A stretch of DNA of 64,000 nucleotides from Candidatus Nomurabacteria bacterium (GCA_020632375.1 JACKFR010000002.1:118771-182770); one strand, 5' to 3'. Positions 13,212-49,857 are shown, numbered from the stretch's first letter. Numbers and translations: made by a program. The notes: generated by a model from the letters alone, not told the origin.

Positions 13212-13276
13212 TATTGATATTATATTGAGGATGGTCTACTCTTTACAAGTAATCGCTGTTGAACTAATTGTTTTAT

Positions 13277-17519: not shown

Positions 17520-18842
17520 CTACTTTGAAAAGAAAAGCTCACTAAATTTAAGTCCTTTTTCTAAGAGATCAATCGAAAAGTTTTCATCAATCCCATGCAT
17601 ATTACAATCTTCACCCGCCATCGAGACCGAGATTGTTTCTTGTCCCATCTTTTCTTTAAAGTCATTTATAACTGGTATGCTACCGCCTACATATTTAAAA
17701 AGTACTTTGTCACCATAAGCTTTTTCAGCAAGTTCTTTTACTTCTTGAAATTTCGCCGAACTTGTATCCATTTTTATTGCTTTGCATGGGCTTTCTGATT
17801 CAATGTCCCAGTCCACATACTCTGGAGTATTATCTTCTACAAACTTTGTGAAATCTTGTATAACTTTTTCTGGATCTTGATTCGCTACAAGGCGAATATT
17901 AATCTTCGCAAACGCTGTTCCAGGGACAATATTACTATATCCTTCGCCGGTGTATCCTGATTGAATACCTGAGACTGTAATCATAGGCCTTAGTCCGGTT
18001 TGGGTAAAGAAATCAATACCTTCTTCTGTTTTAAGCTGTCGGATTCCAGTCTGGTTTGTAAACGAAGACATGTCGAATGGAATAGATTTATTATTCTCTA
18101 GTTCCTCTTGGGTGACTTCGGCTACACCATTATAGAAACTTTGGTAGCTGACCTGATTTTTGTCGTTGTAAATCTTTGTAATTAACTTTGCCAACTCCAT
18201 GGGAGCGCTAGGAGCAGCACCTCCATAAATCCCAGAGTGTAGATTGTTTTTTGCCGTCCGATAGGTTACTGTAAGGCTAACATTACCTCGGAAACCAACA
18301 TCTATTGTGGGCCTGTCTGCAGTTGTCTCACCATCAGATACCATCACGTAATCTGCGGCAAGAAGGTCTAGGTTTTTAGCTATAAAGTCACCAATTTCTG
18401 TATTTCCTGTTTCTTCATTTCCTTCTATTAGAAATTTCACATTGTATTTAAGCTTGCCTTGTTTAATAAGTTTTCCTATTGTATATAGGTGAACCATAAA
18501 TTGGCCTTTATTGTCTATTGCACCACGTGCAATTAGCTTTCCTTTGCGCTCGGTTAGCTCGAAAGGATCGCTTGACCAACCGTCTTCTTTTGAAGCTGGT
18601 TGCACATCGTAGTGTCCGTAGATTAGCACTGTCTCTGCATCATCCGATACTTTGTAGCTTGCTACTACATATGGGTTCATTTTGCCCTCGGTTATTGTCT
18701 GAGCTTCAAAACCATAACCAACAAGAGTCTGTTTAATCCACTCTGCGGTTTTAAGCACATCATCTTTATATTGAGAGTCGGTTGAAATGCTTTTTAGTTT
18801 TATTATCTCGCTTAGTAACTTTTTGTATTCAGATATATCCAT
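17520..18842 (-). CDS. M20 family metallopeptidase (dipeptidase-like)
   Basis: 440 aa with M20 motifs (LIYGHYDVQP, GAIDNKG, LIEGNEETG). Confidence 0.85.
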   Translation of the reverse strand: MDISEYKKLLSEIIKLKSISTDSQYKDDVLKTAEWIKQTLVGYGFEAQTITEGKMNPYVVASYKVSDDAETVLIYGHYDVQPASKEDGWSSDPFELTERKGKLIARGAIDNKGQFMVHLYTIGKLIKQGKLKYNVKFLIEGNEETGNTEIGDFIAKNLDLLAADYVMVSDGETTADRPTIDVGFRGNVSLTVTYRTAKNNLHSGIYGGAAPSAPMELAKLITKIYNDKNQVSYQSFYNGVAEVTQEELENNKSIPFDMSSFTNQTGIRQLKTEEGIDFFTQTGLRPMITVSGIQSGYTGEGYSNIVPGTAFAKINIRLVANQDPEKVIQDFTKFVEDNTPEYVDWDIESESPCKAIKMDTSSAKFQEVKELAEKAYGDKVLFKYVGGSIPVINDFKEKMGQETISVSMAGEDCNMHGIDENFSIDLLEKGLKFSELFFSK

Positions 18843-30861: not shown

Positions 30862-31890
30862 TTAGTGAAGAACGCTGAGATATATTCCAGCAATGGACAG
30901 AAAGATAGTTATAACCCAGAACCTCATTGTGACTTTGTGTTCCGGCCAACCAAGAACTTGGAAGTGGTGGTGTAGCGGGGCCATTTTGAAAACTCTTCTT
31001 TTAAAGAATCTCATGCTAATTATTTGGATCATACTTGAAAGGAGAATAATCCAGGTTAGACCGGTTATTAGAAAGTAAGGAATGACTTGATCAGTTGCAA
31101 TAGCGATATAAAATGCTGACGCACCTAGTGGCATTGCACCTGGTCCTCCATTATAAAAGCGAGCAGGAGGAGTGTTAAAATATAGGTCTACAACAACCAC
31201 ACCAATGATTATGGCAATTACAGGAATATATTTTGGTTGGTTATTGATTAATAAAACTGCTCCAAGCGCAGTATAAGAAATTCCGAAAATCCCAATCATT
31301 AAGCCGTCTAATCCGTCAGTAAGTTCCGCTGCGTAGATTGCGAGTTGCCCTAGAATTCCAAGCACCGGAATAAGTGCAGGTGTAAATGCAATTGCCCAGT
31401 TGCCTAGTGAAATATCGGGCACAATCCCAGTTAACTGGAGAAGGTACATGATAAAAATATTTAATACCATAGCGATTGAAAATCTCGTTAAGCGAACTAT
31501 AAACTTTTCTTGGATCGTGCGAAGCTCTGGATTGTTTTTAATCATGTTTGTGAACAACACATCTAGAAATCCCCAGAATCCAAATAGTATAAATGACAAA
31601 ATAAAGAGGCTTATATCTGGAGTTCTATCCACAAGGAGAAAAACTAAAATTGGCACGACAACCCATATTAATATTCCGCCCATGTTAGGGATTCCATTTT
31701 TACCTGAAACATTCATGATTTTAAGATAGAGTGAGTTATCACCCTTAATGCCCCCACCAAGCTTTGTCTTTTTATGTGCTGCAACTTGATTGAATCGGTA
31801 AAGAATGCCTATCATTATCGGAGCGAATGCAAATGCGAAAATAAATGAAATAAAAAGATTCTCCAAAGCGGATTTAACTATGATATCCAT
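30862..31890 (-). CDS. MraY-family polyprenyl-phosphate sugar-1-phosphate transferase, divergent paralogue
   Basis: 342 aa. MraY-like segments are present (GIPNMGGILI, ELTDGLDGL, KMAPLHHHFQVLGWPEHKVTMRFW). However, the DD motif reads FLDVLF and the GD(V/T)GS motif reads NGGPGA. Confidence 0.8.
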   Translation of the reverse strand: MDIIVKSALENLFISFIFAFAFAPIMIGILYRFNQVAAHKKTKLGGGIKGDNSLYLKIMNVSGKNGIPNMGGILIWVVVPILVFLLVDRTPDISLFILSFILFGFWGFLDVLFTNMIKNNPELRTIQEKFIVRLTRFSIAMVLNIFIMYLLQLTGIVPDISLGNWAIAFTPALIPVLGILGQLAIYAAELTDGLDGLMIGIFGISYTALGAVLLINNQPKYIPVIAIIIGVVVVDLYFNTPPARFYNGGPGAMPLGASAFYIAIATDQVIPYFLITGLTWIILLSSMIQIISMRFFKRRVFKMAPLHHHFQVLGWPEHKVTMRFWVITIFLSIAGIYLSVLH

Positions 31891-36321: not shown

Positions 36322-37740
36322 TTATTCATTCAAAGTCTGAGTCATCAAATCTCCCCAGTCGCTTGCGCTCATAAAAACTATAATCGTATTTTCATCACTT
36401 TCAGATTTGATTCTGTCAATAAGTTCTTCATCTTTGGGGATATAAAGTGTCTTTGTTCCGGTTTGTGAAATCGCTGCTGCATAATCCTTCCCATAAATTC
36501 TATGCTCTTTTGGCACTGACTTTTTGACTGTCATCTTCGGTAACAATACCAAATCGGCTTGGTCAAACGCACCTCTGTAAGCACTCAGTGCGTTACGATC
36601 TTCTCTTTCACTTGATCTCGGCTGATAAATCGCAATGATTTTCTTGTTTTTATACCTTGTTTTTAACGCCTCTAGAGTAGATTTTGCTTTGACTGCGGAG
36701 TGTGCGAAATCATCTATCACGATACTCCCTTCTGTTGAAGTACCAATTATCTCTTGTCGCCTTTTTAACCCCTTAAAAGTTGAGAGTCCTGAATTAATTG
36801 ATTTAATATCGATTCTGAGATGGTGACACACAGCAATTGCGGCAAGACAGTTTTCTACATTGTGTTCGCCTATCATGTCTGTTTCGAAATCTCCAAGCGG
36901 TGAATCATTAAGCAAAACAGTAAACTTTGTATTGTTTTCAGTGTGAATGATATTTGCTGCTAGATAATCAATTGGTGAGTCGATCACAGTTGCTCGATTT
37001 TCTAAAGCATATATTATGCTATCACCATTGTAAGTATTTAAGACTTTTTCATTGTTTTCACCAGAAGCACAGATAAACAAAACTCCTGAGTTCTTTTCTA
37101 CTTCTTTGGCTAGTTTGATGAAAGCATCGATATATGACTGCTCGGTTTTATAGATATTGAGATGATCCCATTTGGTCGAAGATAGAATCGTGTACTTGGG
37201 CTTATAGCTCAAGAATCGGGGCTCCATATCGAAGCTATATACAGAAGCAAATTCATCTCCCTCTAAAACAGAAAAATCACCTCCAGTAGATTTTACTCCA
37301 GTTGGGAAATTAATTGGTTTGCCTCCGACCATGAATGAAGGCTCTTTTCCAGCACATTCAAGTATCCAAGCAATTATTGCAGTTGTTGTTGTCTTCCCGT
37401 AGCTTCCTGTTACAACAATAGAAATATCTTTAACAACGAGTAGTTGCAAAGCATATGCGTATCCTTCAATCTGTTTCCCAAGTTCTTTTGCGTGAATAAA
37501 CTCTTCATTATTTGGGTTGCCAAGAAGCGGAAAGCCTCCGAGAATTACAAGATCAACATCTTCTACCCTACCCTTATCGTACCCTTCATACCATTTTATG
37601 TCGTTTTCATTGAGCAGGCTGAGTGCTGGTTCAAAAACATTTGTGTCAGATCCAGTGACATCCCAGCCTTTTTTTTTCATCATTATCGCAATAGGAGCCA
37701 TTGCGGAACCGGCTATTCCGATAAAATGTACTTTTTTCAT
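36322..37740 (-). CDS. MurC/Mpl-family ligase, closest by motif to Mpl (UDP-MurNAc:peptide ligase)
   Basis: 472 aa. HFIGIAGSAMAPIAIMMKKKGWDVTGSDTNVFEPALSLL resembles, from memory, the E. coli Mpl segment HILGICGTFMGG...VTGSDANVYPPMSTLL. Other motifs are GSYGKTTTT, EGDEF, DDFAHS and QPRSSE (Mpl has EPRSNT; MurC has QPHRFTRT). Confidence 0.7.
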   Translation of the reverse strand: MKKVHFIGIAGSAMAPIAIMMKKKGWDVTGSDTNVFEPALSLLNENDIKWYEGYDKGRVEDVDLVILGGFPLLGNPNNEEFIHAKELGKQIEGYAYALQLLVVKDISIVVTGSYGKTTTTAIIAWILECAGKEPSFMVGGKPINFPTGVKSTGGDFSVLEGDEFASVYSFDMEPRFLSYKPKYTILSSTKWDHLNIYKTEQSYIDAFIKLAKEVEKNSGVLFICASGENNEKVLNTYNGDSIIYALENRATVIDSPIDYLAANIIHTENNTKFTVLLNDSPLGDFETDMIGEHNVENCLAAIAVCHHLRIDIKSINSGLSTFKGLKRRQEIIGTSTEGSIVIDDFAHSAVKAKSTLEALKTRYKNKKIIAIYQPRSSEREDRNALSAYRGAFDQADLVLLPKMTVKKSVPKEHRIYGKDYAAAISQTGTKTLYIPKDEELIDRIKSESDENTIIVFMSASDWGDLMTQTLNE

Positions 37741-37752
37741 CTTTTTTGAGGT

Positions 37753-38502
37753 CTATTTTAATATTGCATCTATCGCATCTGACTTATTCTTGAGCTCTCC
37801 AAAAGTGTGACCTGTTGTTTTTTTATTTCTAACAATTTCTTTCAGTAAAGATATATCGGAGTCCCATGCCCGTCCGTTAAAGAACTGACCTCCTTCAAAC
37901 TGAGTCTTATATAGTGACGCCTCAGTATACACTGTCCCCAGATATGCATAGCGCAATCCCTTCTCTTTTGCGTAGACTATCGCTTGAAGCATCATTCCCA
38001 TACCGAGGTTAGAATTATTTAGTTCAAGCTTATAAAAAGGGTATGCGTAATGTAGGATTTTTTTTGTTTTGTTAACAAGGCAGTAGCCGACAATATATCC
38101 ATCTGTTTTGTATTCGATTACATCAGTCATTGCTCCAGAAGTAAATAGCCATTTAGCTTTTTGAGCTGACATTGTTTTCGGACCGAATTTTTCTGTATAG
38201 AAATCTTTAGCAAGCTTACCTATTTCGTAGGAATAAGTAAAATTCTTCAGTCTGTGAACTTCAAGACTCAAGCTGCTGTTTCTTTTCTGTATTCTCCTGT
38301 TTTCGCTGCTTAATTTGAATTTTCTGAGGTCGACTCTAAAGCTTCTACATAGATAGAAAAGTCTCTTATCAATTCTTGTCGGAAGAAAGCCGTTGTCGTA
38401 AATAAGCTTGAGAGTGTCTTTCGGCTCTTTGACTCCACATACTTGGTATGGATAGCTATAACTTTCGTAATCTGCTGTAAATTCTGAAAAAAACAATTTC
38501 AT
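37753..38502 (-). CDS. ATE/Bpt-family (arginyl/leucyl-tRNA--protein transferase-like) aminoacyl-tRNA transferase homologue
   Basis: 249 aa. NGFLPTRIDKRLFYLCRSFRVDLRKFKLSSENRRIQKR and ...HYAYPFYKLELNNSNLGMGMMLQAIVYAKEKGLRYAYLGTVYTEASLYKTQF parallel bacterial Bpt (NGFRRSG..Y...C..R...F.LS..QKR; SA.Y.F..P....SLG....L......E......YLGY......M.YK..F). The Cys cluster is absent. Confidence 0.62.
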   Translation of the reverse strand: MKLFFSEFTADYESYSYPYQVCGVKEPKDTLKLIYDNGFLPTRIDKRLFYLCRSFRVDLRKFKLSSENRRIQKRNSSLSLEVHRLKNFTYSYEIGKLAKDFYTEKFGPKTMSAQKAKWLFTSGAMTDVIEYKTDGYIVGYCLVNKTKKILHYAYPFYKLELNNSNLGMGMMLQAIVYAKEKGLRYAYLGTVYTEASLYKTQFEGGQFFNGRAWDSDISLLKEIVRNKKTTGHTFGELKNKSDAIDAILK

Positions 38503-39797
38503 TTTTGTGGTTGAGTTTTGTTACTTAAGATCTCTCTAACTACTTCTTGGTCGCTCCAAGGTGTCTCTATTGTACCATCTAGATTCATGCTTTTTTCATG
38601 ACCTTTGCCGCTTATAATTACTATGTCTCCTTCTTGAGCAATTTTAACGGCTTTTTGAATGGCTTCTTTTCGGTTCTTAATACTGAAATAGTCTTTATCT
38701 TCTACTTTGTCATACTTGATAATACCTTGTGCAATCTCTTTATTAATGTTGCTAACGCTCTCTCCTCTTGGGTCTTCTGCTGTTAAGAAAACGATATCTG
38801 CAAACTGTCCTGCAGCTTCTCCCATAAGTGCCCTTTTCGACTTGTCTCGTTTGCCTGCACTTCCAAAAACAACAATTACTTTTCCTTTGCGCTTAATCTG
38901 TGAAGCATAGCTTAACATCTTGTACAAAGCATTCGGGGTATGAGCGAAGTCTACAACTACTTGAAAAGGCTCAGACTGAATCACTTCCCATCTTCCTTCA
39001 ACCCCTTCAACTTCTGCTAATGCTTCGGCGATATCATTTTCATGAACGCCTAGTTGAGAAGCTACTCCAATTGCAGCAAGTGAGTTATAGACGTTGTACT
39101 CACCTGGCATATTTAATTTAACTTTGAACTGCTTCTCTCCTATATTGACTGCAAATGAAGATCCTCGAGAGTTCACTTCGAGACCAGAGGCATAGATATT
39201 GGAGCCTTCTTCCAATCCATAACTTAAAACTTTTAGATCATGCGATCTGGCTTTTTCACTTATTGTGTCAAATATCTCATTAATGTCGTAATTAATAACG
39301 GCGACGCCACCAGGCTTTGTCAGGTCGATTAGCTTTAGCTTAGCTCTCAAATAGTTTTCAAAAGTCTTATGATAGTCAAGATGTTCATGGGTAACGTTGG
39401 TATAAACTGCAAATGAAAACTGAATCCCGTCTGCTCGGTGTTGGTCTAATCCGTGCGAGGTAGTCTCAAGAACTACATATTTAACGCCTTCTTCTTTCAT
39501 ATCTTTCAAAAACTTTTGAAGTGAAGATGGGTTGGGGCTTGTTACGTGAAATCCTGTTGGGTAGTCTTTTCCGCCTATTTTTGCACTTATTGTAGTTATA
39601 AGCCCGACATTTAGTCCAGCCTGTTTCAAGATCTTGTAAATGAGTGTGCTGGTTGTAGTTTTCCCATCGGTTCCGGTTACACCTATTACCGTCATAGATT
39701 TAGAGGGGTTTCCATAGTAAAAGCTGAAGAAAACCGATGATAGCTTATGTCTAAGGTTGAGGATACTTCTTGGTATCAGATTTTTAATTTTTTCCAT
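38499..39797 (-). CDS. murE: MurE-like Mur ligase lacking most of the N-terminal UDP-binding domain
   Basis: 432 aa. FYYGNPSKSMTVIGVTGTDGKTTT places the P-loop at about residue 41, versus about 115 in full-length MurE. Other motifs are TSHGLDQHR, TNVTHEHLDYH, DFAHTPNAL, FGSAGKRDKSKR, TAEDPRGE and SGKGHE. A 4-nt overlap links it to the downstream ATE-like gene. Confidence 0.82.
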   Translation of the reverse strand: MEKIKNLIPRSILNLRHKLSSVFFSFYYGNPSKSMTVIGVTGTDGKTTTSTLIYKILKQAGLNVGLITTISAKIGGKDYPTGFHVTSPNPSSLQKFLKDMKEEGVKYVVLETTSHGLDQHRADGIQFSFAVYTNVTHEHLDYHKTFENYLRAKLKLIDLTKPGGVAVINYDINEIFDTISEKARSHDLKVLSYGLEEGSNIYASGLEVNSRGSSFAVNIGEKQFKVKLNMPGEYNVYNSLAAIGVASQLGVHENDIAEALAEVEGVEGRWEVIQSEPFQVVVDFAHTPNALYKMLSYASQIKRKGKVIVVFGSAGKRDKSKRALMGEAAGQFADIVFLTAEDPRGESVSNINKEIAQGIIKYDKVEDKDYFSIKNRKEAIQKAVKIAQEGDIVIISGKGHEKSMNLDGTIETPWSDQEVVREILSNKTQPQK

Positions 39798-39925
39798 TTG
39801 GCTCGAAATACAGAATCTATAAATTGAGATTCATTAATATATGGTTTTTCTCTTTGAATGATTTATCTTATCTTACCTCTATAGTATATACTAGTGGAAG
39901 AAGATGTATTAGTTATAAAATTAAT

Positions 39926-40675
39926 ATGAAGTTCGAATTCGCTGGTACAACCTGTTATTACAAAGAGATTGGTTCTGGAAAGCCTCTCCTGCTTGTGCAC
40001 GGATGGGGCGGTTCATCTCAAAGCTTACTGTCTCTCGCAAAAAGGTTAAAAGATTCATATAAAGTTTATATGTTAGACCTTCCAGGATTTGGAAAATCTG
40101 AGGCTCCTAAGTCTGCATGGGGAGTCGATGAGTATTCTGCATTTGTGTCAGAGTTTTTAGAACAAGTAATCAAAACTCCAGTAATATATTTTGGACACTC
40201 GTTTGGCGGGGGAATCGGGGTTTATCTAGCTGCAAATCTCCCATCAATGTTCGACAGATTAATTCTGTGCGGAGCAGCTATAATTAGAAATCCCACTGAA
40301 GCAAGAGCTTCAAAAATTATAAAAAAAGTGATCCCTTTTTATTCTTCATTTAAAAAGTATTTTAGACCTGCGAGAAAGCTTTATTATAAAATCTTTTATC
40401 CTCGTTCAGACTTACTAAAGAATGAGCACTTAGAAGGTAGCTTTCGAAAAATCATAAACCAAGACCTGTCATCGTATCTTCCTAAAATCACTACTCCGAC
40501 ACTAATTTTATGGGGAAGCGAAGATAGTTATACACCTGTGAAACAGTCACACATTATCCATGAAGCTATGTCAGGGAGTAAGCTGGAAATATTAACCGGA
40601 GCTTCACATTCTCTGCCACTTGAGCAATCAGAATGGGTTTATAAAAATTTAGTTGACTTTATAGATCGTAAATGA
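39926..40675 (+). CDS. alpha/beta-fold hydrolase
   Basis: LLLVHGWGGS and the nucleophile elbow GHSFGG, with a C-terminal His (GASHSLP). The track starts at TTG 39824; I prefer ATG 39926. Confidence 0.78.
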   Translation: MKFEFAGTTCYYKEIGSGKPLLLVHGWGGSSQSLLSLAKRLKDSYKVYMLDLPGFGKSEAPKSAWGVDEYSAFVSEFLEQVIKTPVIYFGHSFGGGIGVYLAANLPSMFDRLILCGAAIIRNPTEARASKIIKKVIPFYSSFKKYFRPARKLYYKIFYPRSDLLKNEHLEGSFRKIINQDLSSYLPKITTPTLILWGSEDSYTPVKQSHIIHEAMSGSKLEILTGASHSLPLEQSEWVYKNLVDFIDRK

Positions 40676-42105
40676 GCTTCTTGATAATGAGTGTAATTTT
40701 TTCATTAGGACTGCTTAGTTCACTCCCTTGGCTGTACTACCTTCAGGTAAAAGACTATTTTTATCTCCGCGTTGTTTCGGGTTTGAAAGAACAGGGATTA
40801 AAACCGTTATTCTGGTTCTTACCTTTTAAGATCCCTGCGAAAAGCTTACGAAATATTTTGGTCCTCATCATTTCGTTTTTGTCTCTTATTTTAATTGCGT
40901 ATGTGATGAGCTTAAATTCTACAATTGATTATCAAGAGATTTTGATACTTGGTGTTTCAAGTTACTTTTTTTCGAGGCTAGTAGTACTTGTGACGGTTAT
41001 TCTTACTGAACCATTAGCATATTTAAGGCGTGAAATGTTAATCAAGCAGGCTAGTAAAATGGTGCTGAGTTCAAACGCGGTCTTTATCGGTGTTACCGGT
41101 TCTTACGGGAAAAGCAGCACAAAAGAGTTTATAGCTGAAATTCTCGCTTCTGAATTTCATACCGGAAAGTCTGTCGAGAATTATAATTCAGAGGTTGGGG
41201 TGGCAATTTCAGTTCTTAGAAATCTTGAGCCAGATAAAGAGTATTTTGTTTCTGAAATGGGTGCTTATACAAAAGGCACAATAGCTAAATCGGCTTCTAT
41301 TGTGAAGCCTAAAATGGCTGTTTTAACTGGGCTTGGCAACCAGCATTTAGATACGTTTGGTTCACGGGCGAATATCATTGAGGCAAAGTCTGAGCTTTTA
41401 CGCGCACTTCCTCCTGATGGGATTGCATATATAAATATTGATTGCGAAGGATATAAAAAAGCTTTGGAATACTGCAACTGCAAGACAGTTACATATTCGA
41501 TTTCAAATCACTCTGCGGATGTTTTCGCAGCTATTGATCGTCGTAGCTCCAATGAAATATATTTTAGTTTTAAATATGGGGAGATTGAGACTCGGTTTGA
41601 AACCCATCTTCCAGGATTACATAATGTTTTAAACTTGTTACCCGGGATTGCAATAGCTTTGGATCAAGGTATTGAAATCACTAAGATACAAAAGTCTCTA
41701 AGCTCAATCGCACCATTGAAAGGTCGACTCTCCTCTACAACAAGAAGTGACGGGGTCGAAATAGTCGATGATTCATACAATAATAGCTTGATGGGATTTT
41801 CTAGTGCTGTTGATGTAATGAAAATTTATCCTGCTCGAAAGAAGATTCTTATCACTAAAGGAATTATAGAGCTTGGAAAAGAAAAAAAGTCTTCTTATGA
41901 ACATTTGACATCGAAACTACAAGGAACAGATATTAAAGTGTTTACAACTGATCAAGAGCTAGCAAATTGTGGAGAGGGTATCGAGTATGTTTCGTCAGAA
42001 AAGGAGCTCTTGTCAGCGCTCAGTAACATTCTTGATTCAGGAGACCTACTTTTGATTAAGGGGCGATTCTCACCTAATTTCATGAAACAAATTAATCGTC
42101 CATGA
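40672..42105 (+). CDS. MurF-like Mur ligase with an N-terminal three-helix membrane domain
   Basis: Residues 1 to about 115 contain three hydrophobic helices (MSFLIMSVIFSLGLLSSLPWLYYL; ILVLIISFLSLILIAYVMSL; ILILGVSSYFFSRLVVLVTVIL). A MurF-type core follows (VFIGVTGSYGKSSTKE, NYNSEVGV, FVSEMGA, VLTGLGNQHLDTFGS, DDSYNNS). Its ATGA start overlaps the hydrolase stop. Confidence 0.8.
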   Translation: MSFLIMSVIFSLGLLSSLPWLYYLQVKDYFYLRVVSGLKEQGLKPLFWFLPFKIPAKSLRNILVLIISFLSLILIAYVMSLNSTIDYQEILILGVSSYFFSRLVVLVTVILTEPLAYLRREMLIKQASKMVLSSNAVFIGVTGSYGKSSTKEFIAEILASEFHTGKSVENYNSEVGVAISVLRNLEPDKEYFVSEMGAYTKGTIAKSASIVKPKMAVLTGLGNQHLDTFGSRANIIEAKSELLRALPPDGIAYINIDCEGYKKALEYCNCKTVTYSISNHSADVFAAIDRRSSNEIYFSFKYGEIETRFETHLPGLHNVLNLLPGIAIALDQGIEITKIQKSLSSIAPLKGRLSSTTRSDGVEIVDDSYNNSLMGFSSAVDVMKIYPARKKILITKGIIELGKEKKSSYEHLTSKLQGTDIKVFTTDQELANCGEGIEYVSSEKELLSALSNILDSGDLLLIKGRFSPNFMKQINRP

Positions 42106-43358
42106 AAAAAAGAAGAATCTACACATCATACTCCCCTAATACTCGCATAAAAGATCTTCTACTTGATATTGCGATTTTATTTCAGCCGTATAGTTGGTTT
42201 CGGGGTTACTACCCTTCAAAAATCGAGGAATGGTTTCGCAATCAGTATATGACAGACAACGTTTTTACTTACAATTACGCCCGCTCAGCTATATATGAAT
42301 TTCTTCGTGCTGCAGGAATTGGTCAGAATGATGAGGTAATTGTTCCGGCATTTACCTGTGTTGCTGCTATTAATCCTGTTTTATGGACCGGCGCAAAAGC
42401 AGTTTATGCGGATATCGATGAGACGTATCTTTCACCTGGTTTGGGAAGTTTCCAGAAGGCTTTTACCGATAAGACAAAAGCGATTTTTATACAGCATACT
42501 TTTGGTTTGAGCGGAGATTTAGAAAAAACCGTTGATTGGGCTCAAGAGAAAGGGCTTATTGTCTTGGAAGACTGCACGCAGGTTTTAAATCCGTTTTCAC
42601 AGCGGCAAAAGATATTAGGTACTCTTGGCGATGCCGCAGTATTTAGCTTTGGCAGAGATAAAGTTGTTTCTGGTGTAGATGGCGGAGTTTTAGTCGTGAA
42701 TAACAGCGAATTTGTTGAGAAAATGAGAAATCAGCAAGATTTATTAAAATATCCTCCCACATCTTGGTTACTTAAAGAAATTCTTTACCCACTTCTTTGG
42801 GCGAAGATTAAGTTTGGAATGAAATTTGGCAAGCTAGGTAAATTACTTCATTATATTTTCACTAAATCCGGTCTTCTTACTAGAGCGACTGATGCCGATG
42901 AGAAACTTGGTTTAAAGCCATCATACATTCCTGCAAGACTTCCAAATGCATTAGCTAGATTGGCATACAGGCAACTAAACGATCTGGAGGAATTAAATAA
43001 GCACAGAGCTGAAATTTCGTCAATATACGATTCTGGTCTTAAGGCAATCTCTGGAGTTAAGCGCTTTTCATTTCCGGCGGGGACAATTTTATTAAGATAC
43101 CCGCTGTTAGTTAGAGATGCTGAAAAACTGAATAAATACTGTACCGATAGAGGTATTGTACTTGGAGACTGGTATAAGACACCTGTTGCGCCAGCTGAGG
43201 CAGATATTAATGCAGCTGGATATCATTCGGGTGATGCACCGATAGCCGAATCAGTTTGTTCACAGATAATTAACCTGCCTACTTCGATTAACATCAACAG
43301 CAGTGATGCGAAATATATTGTTGATGTGATTAAAGAATTTTACTTAGAAAGGAGCTAG
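42102..43358 (+). CDS. DegT/DnrJ/EryC1/StrS-family PLP-dependent aminotransferase
   Basis: 418 aa with the family pattern (DEVIVPAFTCVAAINPVLWTGAKAVYADID, KAIFIQHTFG, VLEDCTQ, FSFGRDKVVSGVDGG). A 4-nt overlap links it to the MurF-like gene. Confidence 0.78.
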   Translation: MKKRRIYTSYSPNTRIKDLLLDIAILFQPYSWFRGYYPSKIEEWFRNQYMTDNVFTYNYARSAIYEFLRAAGIGQNDEVIVPAFTCVAAINPVLWTGAKAVYADIDETYLSPGLGSFQKAFTDKTKAIFIQHTFGLSGDLEKTVDWAQEKGLIVLEDCTQVLNPFSQRQKILGTLGDAAVFSFGRDKVVSGVDGGVLVVNNSEFVEKMRNQQDLLKYPPTSWLLKEILYPLLWAKIKFGMKFGKLGKLLHYIFTKSGLLTRATDADEKLGLKPSYIPARLPNALARLAYRQLNDLEELNKHRAEISSIYDSGLKAISGVKRFSFPAGTILLRYPLLVRDAEKLNKYCTDRGIVLGDWYKTPVAPAEADINAAGYHSGDAPIAESVCSQIINLPTSININSSDAKYIVDVIKEFYLERS

Positions 43359-43359
43359 G

Positions 43360-44379
43360 ATGGAGTTTCGTGTCGTAACAGATCGCAAGGAATGGAATTC
43401 ATTTGCATTAAAGTTTCCTGACTCGTCATTTATAAGCTCATGGGATTGGGGAGTTTTTGAAAGAGAGATCGGCTCAAAATTTGAAAATTATGGTTTATAT
43501 AATAGCGATGATTTAGTTGCTCTTTTGCCTATTAAGACCGTCAATGCAATTCGAGGAAAATATACTTTACTAAGACATGCACCAGTTGTTGACTGGAGTA
43601 ACGTAGCTGTAGTCCAGTTGATTGTTAATTTCTTACGGGATTATTGTAAAGAAAAGAAATGTCATTTTATTAGAGTGTCTTTACCAAATCAATACGATCA
43701 GAGGCTAGTAGATAAACTTCATGGAATCGGATTTAAAAAAACATTAACTCATGGGGTTGACGGGGCTTTAGCTTTGGCTTTAGATATAACAAAAAGCGAA
43801 GAAGAGCTTTTAAATGAGATGCGCAAAAGCACACGACAAAGTATTAAAAAATCTTTAGAAATTGATCTAGAATGTTATAGCACTACAAGTATTGATGAGT
43901 TTGACGAGTTCTGGGAAATTTTTGAAGATTCAGCTCAAAGAAATCATTGGAGGTCAGCTTATTCACGTAAATATGTTGAAACAGAGTATCGAATTTTCAG
44001 CGAGGCGGGGCTTTCACGGTTATTCTTTACCAAGTATAAAGGTGAGTATACAGCGGCAGGGATGTTCACTTATTTTAACGGACAATCGGTATATCATCAC
44101 AGTGGCTCTTTAACAAAATTCAGAGAACTTCCTTCAATGTATCTCATGCAGTGGGAAGCTATAAAGTACGCTAAATCTATTGGTATGAAAGTTCATAATC
44201 TTTGGGGAGTAGTAGATAAAGACGATACTAAAAGTTCCTGGTACGGTTTGTCACTCTTCAAAAGAGGTTTCGGTGGTTATGAGGTCAGACTTGTGCCCAC
44301 AATGGATTTGATACTTAATCCTTTTGCATACGCTACAAGGACATATGAATGGGTTGAAGCTAAGAGGAAAGGAATATAA
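43360..44379 (+). CDS. FemAB-family peptidoglycan aminoacyl-tRNA transferase
   Basis: 339 aa. N-terminus W..F......F.SSWDWG; later LMQWEAIKYAKSIGMKVHNLWGV and LFKRGFGG, all typical of FemA/FemB/FemX-family proteins. Confidence 0.75.
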   Translation: MEFRVVTDRKEWNSFALKFPDSSFISSWDWGVFEREIGSKFENYGLYNSDDLVALLPIKTVNAIRGKYTLLRHAPVVDWSNVAVVQLIVNFLRDYCKEKKCHFIRVSLPNQYDQRLVDKLHGIGFKKTLTHGVDGALALALDITKSEEELLNEMRKSTRQSIKKSLEIDLECYSTTSIDEFDEFWEIFEDSAQRNHWRSAYSRKYVETEYRIFSEAGLSRLFFTKYKGEYTAAGMFTYFNGQSVYHHSGSLTKFRELPSMYLMQWEAIKYAKSIGMKVHNLWGVVDKDDTKSSWYGLSLFKRGFGGYEVRLVPTMDLILNPFAYATRTYEWVEAKRKGI

Positions 44380-44382
44380 ATC

Positions 44383-45474
44383 TTAGTAAAAGCTAAGCAG
44401 TAGACCGATTATGCTAAAGATCCATGCAAAAAGCCAGAAACGCATAACAACCTTTTCTTCGCTCCACCCTTTTACTTGAAAATGCAAGTGCATAGGAGCC
44501 ATCTTCAGCAACCTTTTGCCAAAAACTCTTCTGTAAATCGCTTGTATGAGAGAAGATCCAACAGTAAGAACAAACATCAATGCAATTATGGGTAGTAGTG
44601 AAACTGCATCAAGAGCTAATGCAATTGTCGATAATAATGCTCCAAGCGCAAGACTTCCTACGTCTGACATTTCAATCCTTGCCGGTTTTATATTGAAATA
44701 TAGATATGCTGCTAGTGAGCCTACAACCGCAGCACAGAGTAACGCCAGAGGCATATTGTGGCGGTTGAGAGCAATAAACATATATGCTGCATAAGCCGGA
44801 ATAAGCATTCCGCTTGCTAACCCATCCATGCCGTCCGCAAGGTTGACGGCATTTGACATTCCTATCACAGCCAAAACAATCAAAATCGGCATTAAGATGC
44901 CAATATGAGTCAGGCCAATAAAGGGGATGCTTATTGAATCCCATCCGAGTCGTGTGTAGATCCACCAGACTACTGGAAGCGAAGATAGTATCTGAATTAT
45001 GATTTTCTCCCCTGCTTGAATCCCAGTGCCGGGATATGAACCAAGTGCGTACCATATATTTTTATATCCCACCCAAGGCAATTCTAGCCACAGGATAACC
45101 CTTTGAAAGTGACTTTTGTGTACCTTTGCAAGAACAATCTGTTTTTTAATTGTTCGCACAATCCGCTTTCTTCCATATATATTCAGTAAGTCATCTACGC
45201 CCCCTAAAGCAGCTGAAAGCAGAAAGACACCCAATGGTACATAAGTATTCCCGTTCCAGTTTGTTACTAATGTAATAATCACTGTTGTTACTATGATTAA
45301 AAGACCACCCATAATTGGTGTACCCGCCTTCAGATAACGTTCTCCGACTAGATGTGAGAAGTCTTTGTCGCCTTGCCTTACAACATTGAATTTGTAGAGG
45401 GTCGAAATTAAAAGCGGAGACCATAGCATTGTGATTATGAAGGAAAGAGATATTGTTAGAAGCAGTTCTTTCAT
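44383..45474 (-). CDS. mraY: phospho-N-acetylmuramoyl-pentapeptide transferase (canonical motif set)
   Basis: 363 aa with KAGTPIMGG, GGVDDLL (DD motif), NAVNLADGMDGL, MSDVGSLALG and KMAPMHLHFQVKGWSEEKVVMRFW. Confidence 0.9.
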   Translation of the reverse strand: MKELLLTISLSFIITMLWSPLLISTLYKFNVVRQGDKDFSHLVGERYLKAGTPIMGGLLIIVTTVIITLVTNWNGNTYVPLGVFLLSAALGGVDDLLNIYGRKRIVRTIKKQIVLAKVHKSHFQRVILWLELPWVGYKNIWYALGSYPGTGIQAGEKIIIQILSSLPVVWWIYTRLGWDSISIPFIGLTHIGILMPILIVLAVIGMSNAVNLADGMDGLASGMLIPAYAAYMFIALNRHNMPLALLCAAVVGSLAAYLYFNIKPARIEMSDVGSLALGALLSTIALALDAVSLLPIIALMFVLTVGSSLIQAIYRRVFGKRLLKMAPMHLHFQVKGWSEEKVVMRFWLFAWIFSIIGLLLSFY

Positions 45475-46247
45475 TCTGGTTTAATCAAAAAATTAGGCCG
45501 TCGAAGTCCGTTTCTATTTTGCTCATAATCTCTTAAAAGGCATTCAAGTGTCCAGCATTTCCCATTTTTGTCGACCTCACGCCATTGTTGGTCTTTGAGG
45601 TCTTTTTCAGGATCTGTAATAACGATCTCGCCGAATTTGACGCCATTGTCTTTTTGGTATGCAGGAGACGAGTGGACATAAGTCACTTGCTTCAATGAAT
45701 TAGATTCGTCTCTTGTTGTACTGTAAATAATTGCCAAGTGATCTCCTCTTTTAACCCCTTTTAATCTGATAAGATCGCCTGGGCTTATCTGATTAAGCTT
45801 GATTGGGGTTGAGTTCTTTTCGTTTGTAAGGTCGTTAGCACTTATATTCTCAATTGGTCTTATTCTTCTTATGATGCTGCGATAAAAAGAAGTCTCTTTA
45901 AATTGCAGCTTGTTTACAAGATTGCCTCTATCAGATGATTTGAGCCATTTATCATAAATATGTGCTGCAAAGCCTGAGCAATCAACACCAATACCTTGAA
46001 GTATCATAAAGTCTCGGATCTCTTCTTCTGATTTCCCTTCTAAAATAAAGCCTCTTAGTTTTGAGTAAATGAGAGTTTCTTCAACAATTTCAGAAGGTAG
46101 ACCCTTTCCTACAAGAGATCTCAGCTCGGCGCGAATTCTCTTAACATTTCTATAATATGGTGCCCGCACAGTGCAACTATTTATTTGGAGATTTAGATAT
46201 TCGTGAACAAGATCTTTAACTGGTTTTGGTACTTCATCAACAATCAT
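45471..46247 (-). CDS. cytoplasmic NlpC/P60-like papain-fold enzyme
   Basis: No signal peptide or TM helix. The catalytic-type Cys context is GVDCSGFAAHIY, followed by PGDLIRL...GDHLAIIY...YVHSS (the Cys-His-His order of NlpC/P60). A 4-nt ATGA overlap links it to mraY. Confidence 0.62.
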   Translation of the reverse strand: MIVDEVPKPVKDLVHEYLNLQINSCTVRAPYYRNVKRIRAELRSLVGKGLPSEIVEETLIYSKLRGFILEGKSEEEIRDFMILQGIGVDCSGFAAHIYDKWLKSSDRGNLVNKLQFKETSFYRSIIRRIRPIENISANDLTNEKNSTPIKLNQISPGDLIRLKGVKRGDHLAIIYSTTRDESNSLKQVTYVHSSPAYQKDNGVKFGEIVITDPEKDLKDQQWREVDKNGKCWTLECLLRDYEQNRNGLRRPNFLIKPE

Positions 46248-46283: not shown

Positions 46284-47681
46284 CTATGACAATTTTGTAA
46301 TGCCTTGCTGCATCTTTTTAATGGCTTTATGGAACTTTTTCTCGATTTTTCCATCTTGATTAATTATGCTCTCTTTGGCTTGGATTCTACCAACTTCGCT
46401 ATTGGGGGAAATAGTACGTTTCTTTTCGGCGTACAGAACCAAAAATTCATTCTCCTCTTGAATGTGATCTATTGAGTAACCACTTCTGACCCATCCATTT
46501 TGATTATAGACTCCAGATTCAATCTTCTTTTTAACCTTTTCTTCTTGGTTAGAAGTATTGCGCAATATAATCTGAGACGCCTCAATTGGCTTAATAGAAG
46601 CTATGTTAAGATCTTGAATAAACGCAGTCATTTCTGCTGGCTTTAAGTTCTGACCCGTTTTTTGGTTAATGAAATTTAAGTATTCTGCATCGCTTGCGAA
46701 AAGAAATTCTGAAATATGAAGTAAGTGAAAAGGAATAAGTTTATGCTGTAGCATAATTTTGTTATGCATGCTTATCGAAGCGACTGGCCGGGCATTAACT
46801 TCAATTACAAAAACTTCTCCCCCATCGTCAATTATAAAATCGACTCCAAAAATCCCACTGTAATTTGCTTTGTACATCTCACTACCGATCCGTCTTGTCA
46901 TTTCGGTTACTTGATTTATTGTCGATGAATCAAGATGTTTTGATGCACTCCAGTCATTTCCCACCGTTCCTCCCTCCATTTTTGTAAGCCCTTTGATTCC
47001 GGTAATCTGCTTGGATAGACCACCGTAGGCAATTCCAAATCTCGTGACACAAGCATTTATTGTCCAAGCTGTTCCTGAGATCATTTTTGCGGTTCTTACA
47101 ATCCGTTTAGGGAATTCTCTTGCAAGTGATCTTAGTTGAGCTTCTTCTCTTATAAAGATAGTTCCTCCACCAGTGTGTCCTCTATCAAATTGGATTACAA
47201 ATGGTAAGCCGAATTCCTTAGAAATAATGTCGAAGTTTAGGTTTTGTAAGCTTGAGATAATTGTTTCTGGAAATCGTATACCAGGCAGACTGAGGCTTTG
47301 GTATTGACTTATTTTAAGTTCAAATTTGCGATTGAGTTTGGAAGAAGTATTGAGAAGGTTATAACCAAGTTTCTCGCAAGTTCGTTCAATATTTGGTGCG
47401 ACTTTAAAGACCATAATTGATGGCTCCGACTGTTCAGAGGTATTCCTTTTTATATATTCTTGAGCTTTTGGGTTTTGTAATAAGACGTTGGTGTTCCGTT
47501 TAATTGGGTTTGGATTGTCTAGCTCTTCAGATAGGGAAAAAATCTTAACGTTTTTCTCACGCATTGCTTCAACAATGTCACCGCCATCTATACAAACAAT
47601 ATGAAAATTCGGAAGCAACCTTTCTAATCCTAAGGCTCTTTCAGGATCAGTACAGAAGAAGAATATGGTTGGTTCTGACAT
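46284..47681 (-). CDS. ATP-grasp family ligase (unassigned subfamily)
   Basis: 465 aa. Central ATP-grasp pattern (GLPFVIQFDRGHTGGGTIFI; SGIFGVDFIIDDGGEVFVIEVNARP). It has no D-Ala-D-Ala ligase N-terminal pattern. Confidence 0.7.
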   Translation of the reverse strand: MSEPTIFFFCTDPERALGLERLLPNFHIVCIDGGDIVEAMREKNVKIFSLSEELDNPNPIKRNTNVLLQNPKAQEYIKRNTSEQSEPSIMVFKVAPNIERTCEKLGYNLLNTSSKLNRKFELKISQYQSLSLPGIRFPETIISSLQNLNFDIISKEFGLPFVIQFDRGHTGGGTIFIREEAQLRSLAREFPKRIVRTAKMISGTAWTINACVTRFGIAYGGLSKQITGIKGLTKMEGGTVGNDWSASKHLDSSTINQVTEMTRRIGSEMYKANYSGIFGVDFIIDDGGEVFVIEVNARPVASISMHNKIMLQHKLIPFHLLHISEFLFASDAEYLNFINQKTGQNLKPAEMTAFIQDLNIASIKPIEASQIILRNTSNQEEKVKKKIESGVYNQNGWVRSGYSIDHIQEENEFLVLYAEKKRTISPNSEVGRIQAKESIINQDGKIEKKFHKAIKKMQQGITKLS

Positions 47682-47718: not shown

Positions 47719-48738
47719 TTACCGTGTTCCTGTAATTATACAAATAGGGTTTTTAAGGGGATATTTATTTTGGGTAGCCTTCTCTAATGCGGCGATTGTC
47801 ATTGCTCCTTCTATTGAGCTATTTATGCCAGCTTTTTGAAGCAGGTCTTGAGCTTTAATCGATTCTTCATCTGAAACTACCCATCCGCTTCCCCCAGTTT
47901 CTTTAATGGCTTTTATCGCTTCTACTTTTCTGTGTGCGATTCGGTCAACAATACTGCTGATAATAGAGCTTTCTTTTGGCTCGAATGATTTATCAAATTC
48001 TCTTGCGATTGGGTTTACTGCTTCTGACTGAACAATATGGATTTCGGGAATTTTTTCTATTTCTCCTTCTTCCAGAAGGTCTTTGTAACCGAGATAGATT
48101 CCGTACGCTGTCGTTGCGCTTGAAGTTGGAATAAAAATCTGATCACCTCGACCCGCTAACTCATAGGAAATTGTTTTAGGCCCTTGTAATGCATATGGAT
48201 CTGTTGAGCCTCTGAGTAAAATTGAATTTGTTTGATTTGCGAATTTAATAGATTCAGAGACTGGTTTGGCTGTAAATGCAATTTTAATATTGTCTAAATT
48301 TATATCGGCTGAAGGTGCTTTGGGCGATTCAATCTGTATGTTTAATGTTTGTGAAAGCCTTTCAAGCTTTCTTTGAGAAATATTTTTACTTAAGAATATT
48401 TTCAGAGATATTTTAGGATTATTTTTTAGAATATATGCAGCACTGATAAGCGAGTTGCCAGAAGAAGAGATGGAGAAGCTTTTGGCACCATCCTGGAGAT
48501 GAGCAGAAATCTGGTATAGAAGGCTGCGATCTTTGTGTGAACCCGTTGGGTTTAGGTCTTCTCGTTTAAATTTTAAATGGTTTATGCCTATGCTATGATA
48601 CAAAGCATCACTCACTTCAAGTGGAGTTTCTCCGCATTCATTTTCAAGCATATATTCTGGCTTGATTATAGGGTTAAATCTTGTGCTGTATTTCCAGATG
48701 CTCACACTATGGACTCGTGATATAATTTGGTAGTACAT
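47719..48738 (-). CDS. threonine-synthase-like fold-type II PLP enzyme
   Basis: The PLP-lysine motif is DLNPTGSHKDRS. Also present are SSSGNSLISAAY and LRGSTDPYALQGPKTISYEL (compare NP.R.EGQKT in ThrC). Confidence 0.72.
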   Translation of the reverse strand: MYYQIISRVHSVSIWKYSTRFNPIIKPEYMLENECGETPLEVSDALYHSIGINHLKFKREDLNPTGSHKDRSLLYQISAHLQDGAKSFSISSSGNSLISAAYILKNNPKISLKIFLSKNISQRKLERLSQTLNIQIESPKAPSADINLDNIKIAFTAKPVSESIKFANQTNSILLRGSTDPYALQGPKTISYELAGRGDQIFIPTSSATTAYGIYLGYKDLLEEGEIEKIPEIHIVQSEAVNPIAREFDKSFEPKESSIISSIVDRIAHRKVEAIKAIKETGGSGWVVSDEESIKAQDLLQKAGINSSIEGAMTIAALEKATQNKYPLKNPICIITGTR

Positions 48739-48766: not shown

Positions 48767-49018
48767 ATGTCAGATGATATGAATAGCATGATCAACGATA
48801 GTGCTTCTGACCAAAGTTCAGGAGTAACAAAAAGGACAGATGATAACGGAAATGTTCTTTTAGAGTGCCCTGAATGCAGCAATGATATTGTAATGGATGC
48901 TGACCGAGACTATATCATTGGTGATATCCTTGAATGTCAATTCTGCGGAACAGAGGTAGAGATTGTTTCTATGGATGATGCAGGCGTTGAAATAGAAATA
49001 GTCGAGGAAGAAAAGTAA
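48767..49018 (+). CDS. LysW-like zinc-ribbon protein (candidate amino-group carrier protein)
   Basis: 83 aa. LLECPECSNDIVMDADRDYIIGDILECQFCGTEVEIVSMDDAGVEIEIVEEEK parallels, from memory, the LysW pattern CPxC...GE(I/V)(V/L)xCxxCGxE(L/V)E(V/I)V with an acidic tail. The canonical C-terminal EDWGE is absent. The first roughly 28 residues are low-complexity, so the start is uncertain. Confidence 0.5.
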   Translation: MSDDMNSMINDSASDQSSGVTKRTDDNGNVLLECPECSNDIVMDADRDYIIGDILECQFCGTEVEIVSMDDAGVEIEIVEEEK

Positions 49019-49128: not shown

Positions 49129-49857
49129 ATGAGATCCTCAGTTCCAGATGTTTCTAAAAAGTATTTAGAACTTTATCAGGCAGCTAAGATACCGTTAAGC
49201 ACACCAATAGCGTATATGCTTACAAAGCATATAGATGGCGTGCAGTTTTTAACCAGAGAGAATGTATTTATTTTGAAAAGATTTCAGTCAATTACTTTTA
49301 TACCTGAAGAAAAGGGTTTAATCGGTTTTTATGTTGATACCGATGCAATTATTACTAAACAGAAGATTTCGCTTGGGGTGGCCGTTGGAGATTGCTCTGT
49401 TATCGTGGCAACAGCAGTAGATAGAAAAGATTCTAAAAGGTTTGTAATTTTTGTACACTCTGGATTTTCCGGTGCAATTCTAAACGTTGTAGGTAAAGCA
49501 ATTGATGCTGCGCACACTCAGTATCAATTTGATAATTCGGATCTGGTTTGTGCGATATATCCTTCTATTTCAGGTAAGAACTACAAGAGAGGTTTGAGTT
49601 ATTTAGAAGAGATACAAAAGGCTGGTTTAGATTTTAGAAGTGAATTTCTAATTCCTGTGTCTGAGACAGAAGCTGGCTTTGATTTCCAGGCTAAGATTGT
49701 TTCAGATTTGAAGGATAAAGGAGTTGAAGTAATAAATGTTTCTGGTTTAGACACATACGAAGAAAACCGTAATAGAAATCTTTATTCACTTACATATGCA
49801 AAGGAGAATAACCTTAGCTTAGATAATAGATTTCTCGTTTGCGTTTCTTTAGGGTAG
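49129..49857 (+). CDS. pgeF: PgeF/YfiH (DUF152, peptidoglycan editing factor) family protein; the N-terminus is probably encoded upstream of an in-frame TGA
   Basis: VGDCSVIV (compare ADC.P), VHSGFSGAI (compare HAGWRG) and a C-terminal CV context. Relative to E. coli YfiH, about 39 N-terminal residues are missing. The in-frame segment 49018-49107 supplies a matching piece. Confidence 0.7.
   Translation: MRSSVPDVSKKYLELYQAAKIPLSTPIAYMLTKHIDGVQFLTRENVFILKRFQSITFIPEEKGLIGFYVDTDAIITKQKISLGVAVGDCSVIVATAVDRKDSKRFVIFVHSGFSGAILNVVGKAIDAAHTQYQFDNSDLVCAIYPSISGKNYKRGLSYLEEIQKAGLDFRSEFLIPVSETEAGFDFQAKIVSDLKDKGVEVINVSGLDTYEENRNRNLYSLTYAKENNLSLDNRFLVCVSLG

Follow-up and report, generated by a model that had tools for sequence, protein, structure and literature searches.

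An ATE/Bpt-superfamily aminoacyl-tRNA transferase homologue linked to a MurC/Mpl-type ligase in cell-wall gene clusters of Patescibacteria

In the cytoplasmic Mur pathway, held to be all but universal and a major target of antibiotics, MurC, MurD, MurE and MurF act on UDP-N-acetylmuramic acid (UDP-MurNAc). Peptides made beforehand are attached to UDP-MurNAc by Mpl. The MurD2/MurL route of Xanthomonas reportedly shows that the D-Glu step of the stem can be rewired, and the Mur ligase of MurT/GatD, which has no domain 1, works on lipid II, a substrate that is not a nucleotide. We analyzed a 64,000-nucleotide (nt) stretch of DNA from a Candidatus Nomurabacteria bacterium (JACKFR010000002.1:118771-182770), referred to as a whole as the window. 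It has a G+C content of ~38% and comes from the Candidate Phyla Radiation (CPR/Patescibacteria). Here a homologue of the arginyl- and leucyl-tRNA-protein transferases (ATE/Bpt) is encoded between two Mur ligases. We conclude that it is very probably a tRNA-dependent cell-wall enzyme coupled to a UDP-MurNAc ligase.

The three-gene unit and its transferase

The unit consists of three genes, given here in their order on the coding strand.

38499-39797, minus strand: MurE-type ligase without the N-terminal, UDP-binding domain 1, 432 amino acids (aa); from hidden Markov model (HMM) matches
37753-38502, minus strand: ATE/Bpt-superfamily aminoacyl-tRNA transferase homologue without the ATE_N zinc finger, 249 aa; from HMM and fold matches
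36322-37740, minus strand: UDP-MurNAc amino-acid/peptide ligase of the MurC/Mpl superfamily, in a putative third clade, 472 aa; from HMM matches and motifs

An earlier note on this DNA had described three co-directional genes, the first two overlapping by 4 nt and the third following after 12 nt. Open reading frames (ORFs) on the minus strand and the junction sequences confirm both the coordinates and the layout. The MurE and transferase genes share an ATGA stop/start overlap at 38499-38502 (reading ...CAAAAATGAAATTG), and the ligase gene follows the transferase gene after a gap at 37741-37752 (reading TAG-ACCTCAAAAAAG-ATG). Inside the three-gene unit, promoter-like or terminator-like sites were not above the shuffled expectation. 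The 249-aa middle protein is identical to the NCBI entry 'hypothetical protein H6764_01870 [Candidatus Nomurabacteria bacterium]', encoded on a 184-kb contig.

The same note had recognized an ATE/Bpt homologue in the middle protein, and its membership of this superfamily is borne out by HMM, fold and catalytic motif. In the HMM scan that the note had proposed, the protein passes the gathering cut-off of Pfam ATE_C (PF04377; 39.3 bits, cut-off 25, E 1.1e-9), and most of its homologues carry a precomputed PF04377 match. The Pfam scan gave no match to ATE_N (PF04376) and none to FemAB (PF02388) at E ≤ 0.01, the sole related match being Acetyltransf_6 (17.6 bits against a cut-off of 22). We used an alignment of 40 homologues to build an AlphaFold (AF2) model with a predicted local distance difference test score (pLDDT) of 91.4. 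The top PDB matches of this model in Foldseek were human and yeast ATE1 (E 5e-9, query template modelling score 0.65), followed in order by MprF/aaPGS, L/F-transferase and Sba18, all of which are aminoacyl-tRNA transferases.

The residues expected of an active enzyme are retained, and the transferase is apparently catalytically competent. Y198-K199 is invariant in 40/40 homologues and is equated, by motif alignment and not by structural superposition, with klAte1 Y303-K304 and FemX K305, which are essential for catalysis (PMC9351520). YLG is also invariant, as is a basic segment, SSENRRILRK (residues 66-74, a predicted helix that carries R69, R70 and K74), which resembles the tRNA-binding alpha3 helix of klAte1. 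The invariant R43 and Y50 are spaced as klAte1 R80 and Y87. Searches of PDB sequences with the single transferase sequence and with the 40-sequence profile found no ATE1 and marginal GNAT matches only, so the residue correspondences with klAte1 rest on motif spacing. By this spacing, the donor-pocket equivalents are A153, M170, A174 and A186, versus S, S, E and Y in ATE1, and none of them is acidic. Such a small, uncharged pocket would fit a small neutral donor such as Ala and would argue against Arg as the donor.

Because no cysteine is conserved among the 40 homologues, we judged the ATE_N zinc finger to be missing. This loss bears on whether the protein could be an N-degron enzyme of the Bpt kind, marking the N-termini of proteins for degradation by Clp and standing in a wall operon by coincidence or for regulation. 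Membership of the ATE/Bpt family would fit such a role, as would a ClpC-type ATPase encoded ~10 kb from the transferase (49862-52456). However, the best score against an NCBIfam arginyltransferase (Bpt-type) equivalog is 63.7 bits, well under the cut-off of 170 and far under those of all the arginyltransferase equivalogs (≥ 170), and the ATE_N cysteines are gone. We consider protein tagging highly improbable.

Linkage and fusion of the transferase to a MurC/Mpl-type ligase

The transferase family comprises 982 representatives at the 50% clustering level and occurs in at least 565 species genomes. We sampled 80 species-level loci for synteny, 43 of which have wall genes. The ligase is directly downstream of, or fused to, the transferase in ~37 of these 43 loci, whose transferases are 29-91% identical. 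In the Microgenomates/Dojkabacteria layout the gene order is FtsI-MurE-transferase-ligase-MurB-MurA-(Ddl)-MurF-MraY-NlpC/P60-(LysW)-PALP-ATP-grasp, and in the Parcubacteria layout it is ATP-grasp-NlpC/P60-MraY-transferase-ligase-(LysW)-PALP. As the three-gene arrangement recurs across dozens of diverged genomes, it is far beyond chance. The linkage to Mur ligases, whose conservation the earlier note had left to be checked, thus extends across Microgenomates-, Dojkabacteria- and Parcubacteria-type genomes and is reinforced by natural gene fusions. None of the three outcomes that the note had named as refuting its idea emerged from the computational tests.

The junctions are often tight. The ATGA overlap between MurE and transferase is found in 6 of 13 junctions, the gap between MraY and transferase is ≤ 16 nt in 20 of 28, and that between transferase and ligase is ≤ 30 nt in 17 of 36. 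We considered an extra conserved gene in the wide transferase-ligase gaps and rejected it: these gaps hold unrelated insertions, for example a methyltransferase. Two loci (L007 and L008) encode MurA-MurE-transferase with no ligase downstream, and their downstream ORFs match no reference protein.

Transferase::ligase fusions occur in at least two diverged lineages. The first group consists of nine 90% clusters (658-747 aa; 48-54% identical to the fusion of locus L039) and includes a Taylorbacteria protein present on 12 contigs. The second fusion (645 aa, with a Pro/Ser-rich linker) is 29% identical to the first group, lies in a Microgenomates-type cluster and was recovered in three independent assemblies. 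An assembly artefact is ruled out, given that the same protein is found in 3 and in 12 independent contigs. The fusions are strong evidence that the transferase and the ligase act together, and it is to this MurC/Mpl-family ligase, and not to MurE, that the transferase is most tightly tied. Repeated fusion to a Mur ligase, with synteny retained at transferase identities down to 29%, would be unexpected for an enzyme that tags proteins for proteolysis.

The window ligase carries all three Mur-ligase domains in Pfam. The earlier note had called it more Mpl-like than MurC-like, and this is partly right: the motifs, the best PDB match and the naming lean that way, and the HMM scores do not. The best PDB match is Psychrobacter Mpl (3hn7), with which the Mpl-specific loop aligns without gaps. 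The family consensus (GICGVAM; DEY..D..pKF..Y.P, with the length of the Mpl loop; DDIAHSP; FEPN.G.R) resembles, without being identical to, the motifs of reference Mpl (GI(C/G)GTFM; the (S/T)AFFDKRSK loop; FAHH; EPRSNT), and JGI/IMG names the family Mpl, whereas NCBI has merely 'Mur ligase family protein'. The window ligase nevertheless scores 262.9 bits on TIGR murC (TIGR01082, cut-off 335.1) and 216 bits on mpl (TIGR01081, cut-off 388.7), ten related ligases score 150-263 bits on the mpl HMM, and murC exceeds mpl in 11/11 members, all of them below both cut-offs. The L-Ala-binding His376/Arg377 of MurC (H. influenzae numbering) are absent, and the MurC motif QPHRYSR is replaced by QPRSSER in the window ligase and by FEPNxGxR in the family. 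On these sequence features the family is neither standard MurC nor standard Mpl and is best regarded as a third clade within their superfamily. Psychrobacter Mpl accepts L-Ala-D-Glu and tri- to pentapeptides (PMC3060825).

The partnership with this ligase speaks more for a step that supplies the ligase than for branching of the FemX type. A FemX-like enzyme would transfer an L-amino acid or Gly from aminoacyl-tRNA onto the side-chain amine of the position-3 diamino acid of a UDP-MurNAc-peptide or lipid II, starting an interpeptide bridge on a stem that is canonical or made with the help of an ATP-grasp enzyme. Branching is the sole peptidoglycan role with precedent for aminoacyl-tRNA transferases. 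It agrees with the fold superfamily and catalytic Lys held in common with FemX, with the location in wall clusters, with the ATGA coupling to MurE in the Microgenomates/Dojkabacteria layout and with the close adjacency to MraY in Parcubacteria. Even so, the most conserved partner, and the sole Mur-ligase fusion partner, is the MurC/Mpl-type ligase, which acts at the start of the stem and not at the branch-acceptor step. The transferase has no FemAB HMM match, a true FemAB-family gene is already present in the window at 43360-44379, and Fem-type genes are reported in most Parcubacteria (PMC4508563). Branching is, in our view, less likely than the route set out below but a serious rival to it.

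A candidate route to the first stem peptide bond

The MurE-type ligase shows Mur_ligase_M and Mur_ligase_C only in Pfam, and it passes the NCBIfam cut-offs for MurE (NF001126, 422.9 bits vs 373; TIGR01085, 418.1 vs 257.3). The HMM match covers the model from position 65-88 onward, and the alignment to Thermotoga MurE 4bub spans residues 92-485 of the latter (295 bits). Because these alignments start late, ~70-90 N-terminal residues, corresponding to domain 1, are absent. The P-loop is at residue 42, and at residues 35-62 in 15/15 related MurE proteins, compared with ~115 in canonical MurE; the truncation of ~70 residues noticed earlier is hence real and family-wide. A mis-called start is ruled out by the mere 33 nt of open frame upstream. 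The protein has an EDPR motif where DNPR is expected.

Domain 1 is also missing from the MurF of the window.

40672-42105, plus strand: MurF-type ligase with domain 1 replaced by a ~120-aa hydrophobic N-terminal region; from the TIGR murF match

This protein scores 222.6 bits on TIGR murF, below the cut-off, with a match that starts at model position 59, and its N-terminal ~120 aa hold several hydrophobic segments. The P-loop is at residue 143, versus ~30 in Microgenomates-type MurF, where the domain is simply gone. In all related genomes examined, this domain is missing from MurE and MurF alike.

About 30 kb of the window encodes MraW, FtsI, a second MraY-like protein, MurA, MurB, the MurE-transferase-ligase unit, MurF, DegT, a FemAB-family protein, MraY, an NlpC/P60-like protein, an ATP-grasp ligase, a ThrC-like enzyme dependent on pyridoxal phosphate (PLP), a LysW-like zinc ribbon, PgeF, MurG and FtsW. 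A class A penicillin-binding protein (PBP1) lies farther off within the window. The 64-kb window contains three Mur-ligase paralogues only and no MurD, with MurA, MurB, MurG, FtsW, FtsI, PBP1, PgeF and two MraY present; a hidden fourth Mur ligase was ruled out by a search of the window for paralogues. A further 10 kb upstream of the window added no Mur-ligase paralogue, and ~45 related loci (±10 kb) have no fourth Mur ligase and no MurD. A published core-gene table for Parcubacteria lists murA, B, E, F, G and J, and does not list murC, murD, COG0771 or COG0773. FemX-like branching would explain neither the missing MurD nor the unusual ligase nor the loss of domain 1 from MurE and MurF.

We tentatively favor, at a probability of roughly 0.4, a model in which the transferase was recruited in CPR/Patescibacteria into the synthesis of peptidoglycan precursors, where it would make the first stem peptide bond off the nucleotide and its partner, the ligase, would then load UDP-MurNAc. 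The donor would be a tRNA charged with a small, neutral L-amino acid, L-Ala being the most likely. The acceptor would be the free alpha-amine of an acidic substrate that is not attached to UDP-MurNAc, either D-Glu or a gamma-D-Glu-diamino-acid peptide, and joining L-Ala to it would form the first peptide bond of the stem. The Mpl-like ligase, with ATP, would then join the resulting peptide to UDP-MurNAc. In a minimal version, Ala-tRNA and D-Glu would yield L-Ala-D-Glu, and the ligase would put this dipeptide on UDP-MurNAc. In an extended version, the domain-1-less MurE and MurF would first build gamma-D-Glu-diamino-acid-D-Ala-D-Ala, which the transferase would cap with L-Ala. Either way the transferase-ligase pair would replace the MurC and MurD steps, which would explain the clusters without MurD, and the longer-peptide version would explain why MurE and MurF have lost the UDP-binding domain.

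The rationale starts from the amine that an aminoacyl-tRNA transferase requires as acceptor: UDP-MurNAc-L-Ala offers no such group, and the enzyme would therefore either decorate a side chain later, in FemX style, or make a peptide for the ligase. We favor the second option because it is with the first ligase, and not with MurE, MurF or MraY, that the transferase pairs by fusion and adjacency, and because the ligase has Mpl-type features in the parts that would meet the incoming peptide, Mpl being able to attach L-Ala-D-Glu and longer peptides. It is also favored because the ATE1 and Bpt subfamilies both accept the alpha-amine of an acidic residue (PMC9351520). Further reasons are that the donor pocket, small and uncharged by motif spacing, would fit Ala, and that a peptide made for the ligase accounts for the missing MurD and, in the longer version, for the loss of domain 1.

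Homologues outside the CPR have other neighbors. Thirty-eight transferase loci have no nearby Mur genes and are mostly from Verrucomicrobiota, with single KSB1 and Saprospiraceae cases. An alanine racemase is encoded directly upstream on the same strand, at a median gap of ~30 nt, in 26 of these 38 loci (including L053, 8786-9934, and L061, 8767-9975), and the KSB1 locus has an alanine-racemase-fold, D-Ser-dehydratase-like gene downstream of the transferase (L062, 10868-11971). As the 26 racemase-linked loci are probably close kin of one another, we count the linkage as modest extra support for a connection to D-amino acids and the wall. Adjacency to alanine racemase also speaks against the tagging of protein N-termini. 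Separately, the transferase domain is fused to a PPDK_N and PEP-utilizers module in one protein (P0214, 809 aa) and lies next to a GARS-like ATP-grasp enzyme in one Bacteroidota-like genome (L049, 10774-12018). These two arrangements hint at other peptide-forming partnerships.

Five further genes of the window recur in the related wall clusters.

44383-45474, minus strand: MraY; Glycos_transf_4 match, TIGR mraY 180 bits; directly upstream of the transferase-ligase pair in Parcubacteria-type loci
45471-46247, minus strand: cytoplasmic NlpC/P60-like papain-fold protein; from motifs and fold; part of a co-conserved module
46284-47681, minus strand: ATP-grasp_3 ligase; Pfam ATP-grasp_3 and weak RimK-family matches; part of the co-conserved module
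47719-48738, minus strand: threonine-synthase-like PLP enzyme (PALP); best PDB match ThrC at 72 bits, far below equivalog cut-offs
48767-49018, plus strand: LysW-like zinc-ribbon small protein; LysW models at 28.8 and 23.9 bits, below cut-offs

A second MraY paralogue lies at 30862-31890 on the minus strand (TIGR mraY 125.6 bits), and both paralogues are below the cut-off of 192. The NlpC/P60-like protein has invariant GIDCSG and His motifs, and all its weak PDB sequence matches are NlpC/P60 proteins. Some of its homologues have a precomputed PF00877 match, and its AF2 model (pLDDT 92.8) matches MepS, CwlO and gamma-D-Glu-diamino-acid endopeptidases. It always accompanies the ATP-grasp_3 ligase next to MraY, and ATP-grasp::NlpC/P60-like fusions of 678-739 aa occur in Dojkabacteria and Magasanikbacteria (L002, 2146-4365; L090, 5919-7955). 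PALP is directly downstream of the ligase in Parcubacteria-type loci; the organisms that carry it lack most amino-acid biosynthesis. The LysW-like protein (52-83 aa) is found in ~40 related loci between the ligase and PALP (e.g., L003, 18414-18572; L091, 5529-5726). Its C-terminus is strictly kept, as ...EEK in Microgenomates/Dojkabacteria and ...DEGK in Parcubacteria, which suggests a carrier or substrate whose terminal Lys matters.

Other genes of the window are less widely shared or of possible relevance. A DegT-type sugar aminotransferase (42102-43358, plus strand), the FemAB-family gene (plus strand) and an alpha/beta-hydrolase (39824-40675, plus strand) stand between MurE and MraY solely in Dojkabacteria-like loci, and the DegT-FemAB pairing might reflect tRNA-dependent aminoacylation of an amino sugar. 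A 653-aa tyrosyl-tRNA synthetase (18879-20840, minus strand) carries an N-terminal B3_4 domain, which usually belongs to the beta subunit of phenylalanyl-tRNA synthetase. Genes possibly concerned with wall-peptide handling are a PgeF-like editing factor (49129-49857, plus strand), an M20 peptidase (17520-18842, minus strand), a membrane protein with LPG_synthase_TM only and no aminoacyl-tRNA synthase domain (13268-14344, plus strand) and an oligopeptide-type family-5 solute-binding protein (59267-60967, plus strand).

The co-conserved module raises the question of another envelope acceptor. The transferase could belong to an assembly line based on a carrier or on the membrane, and act on the conserved terminal Lys of the LysW-like protein, on a lipid-linked intermediate that is processed at the membrane, on an amino sugar or, as MprF does, on a hydroxyl group. 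In favor of this, the LysW-like protein with its invariant ...E(E/G)K end is co-conserved with the ATP-grasp and NlpC/P60-like enzymes, which some genomes encode as a single fusion protein; the fold matches of the transferase include MprF-type and Sba18-type enzymes; and the MurF of the window carries a membrane anchor. Lipid II is also the substrate of MurT, another Mur ligase devoid of domain 1. Yet the transferase shows no fusion or exclusive adjacency with the carrier, MurF or the sugar aminotransferase, DegT is confined to Dojkabacteria-type loci, and the fusion partners point to the UDP-MurNAc ligase. Such an acceptor seems doubtful to us, less plausible than branching.

A bolder reading, which we think improbable, is that the whole stem is built off UDP-MurNAc on the LysW-like carrier, in a convergent precursor route that depends on both tRNA and carrier. 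The ATP-grasp enzyme, as a MurD analogue, would ligate D-Glu to the conserved C-terminal residue of the carrier, and the domain-1-less MurE and MurF would extend the peptide there. The NlpC/P60-like enzyme, ATP-grasp-fused in some genomes, would release the peptide; the ATE-like enzyme would cap the freed D-Glu amine with L-Ala from Ala-tRNA; and the Mpl-like ligase would load the finished peptide on UDP-MurNAc just before MraY.

Several points weigh against the route that we favor, in which L-Ala is added to an acidic acceptor off the nucleotide and the ligase loads the product. We know of no precedent in the ATE/Bpt family for a D-configured or free amino-acid acceptor. The 'RR' of the ATE/Bpt motif GFRRSG is not kept, and the transferase family has GFLPxR instead. 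All 11 ligase members tested prefer the murC HMM. Domains 2-3 of the window MurE are very similar to canonical MurE (the 295 bits to 4bub), and the MurF of natural MurE-MurF chimeras lacks the N-terminal cap and still works on UDP substrates (PMC10214165), so loss of the cap does not prove a non-UDP substrate. The absence of MurD holds for the clusters and flanks examined, and the Parcubacteria core-gene table, which also lacks the symbol mraY, is weak evidence for it beyond them. The ATP-grasp ligase sits in the usual MurD slot beside MraY and could be a MurD substitute. Finally, the non-CPR homologues adjoin alanine racemase, not glutamate racemase, and no ligase, which the favored route leaves unexplained.

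Comparison with known systems

A full-text literature search found no account of domain-1-less MurE/MurF in CPR, of fusions between such a transferase and a Mur ligase, or of ATE/Bpt-type genes within peptidoglycan clusters, and no statement on MurD in CPR. The earlier note had believed that a role for such an enzyme in adding an amino acid to a muropeptide precursor was undescribed, and that search turned up no prior account. Fem wall enzymes on the one hand and ATE/Bpt enzymes on the other were known before; what is new is how they are combined here, possibly in a new pathway.

The clusters depart from the standard pathway in four respects within a widespread radiation: a tRNA-dependent enzyme is tied to the first ligase, that ligase is atypical, MurE and MurF lack the nucleotide-binding domain, and no MurD is present in the clusters examined. 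If the favored mechanism is true, a charged tRNA supplies a residue of the stem backbone; tRNA would then gain a further function in building the wall, and the ATE/Bpt family an activity not described before. On a conservative reading too, a second, unrelated lineage of tRNA-dependent wall enzymes would be new, and would help explain how organisms of minimal biosynthetic capacity build or salvage a wall.

We compared the locus with the systems closest to it. Like the LysW/LysX carrier system, it has a small zinc-ribbon protein with an acidic tail beside an ATP-grasp ligase. The tail, however, ends in a conserved Lys (...EEK/...DEGK) and not in ...EDWGE, LysZ/Y/J are absent, and the LysW HMMs score below their cut-offs. 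The favored route would be tRNA-dependent, unlike MurD2/MurL and MurT/GatD, which are not known to use tRNA and of which no homologues were identified here.

The ligase shares with Mpl and MurC a UDP-binding N-domain, a P-loop and the three-domain architecture, and several of its motifs resemble those specific to Mpl. It differs from both in falling below the two cut-offs, with the higher score on murC, and in C-domain specificity residues that match neither. Unlike recycling Mpl, it appears to be the sole MurC/Mpl-type ligase in a biosynthetic cluster, not a recycling accessory.

With FemX, FemABX and MurM the transferase has in common that it belongs to the tandem-GNAT superfamily of aminoacyl-tRNA-dependent transferases and has the equivalent catalytic Lys, and Fem enzymes act in peptidoglycan synthesis. 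It differs in having no FemAB HMM match, and its 50 best fold matches do not include FemX. Its catalytic Lys is preceded by Tyr, as in ATE1, where Fem enzymes have Phe, and it is linked to the first stem ligase, not to the branch point.

ATE1 is the best fold match of the transferase, and with ATE1 and Bpt it shares the ATE_C match, the C-terminal motif YLG...YK..F, a basic helix for tRNA binding and the Tyr-Lys pair of the active site. It departs from them in lacking an ATE_N match and the Cys4 zinc finger, in scoring far under the Bpt-type equivalog cut-offs, and in a donor pocket with neither the Glu of ATE1 nor the Gln of Bpt. Its genomic partner, adjacent or fused, is a Mur ligase and not the ClpS/ClpA N-degron machinery.

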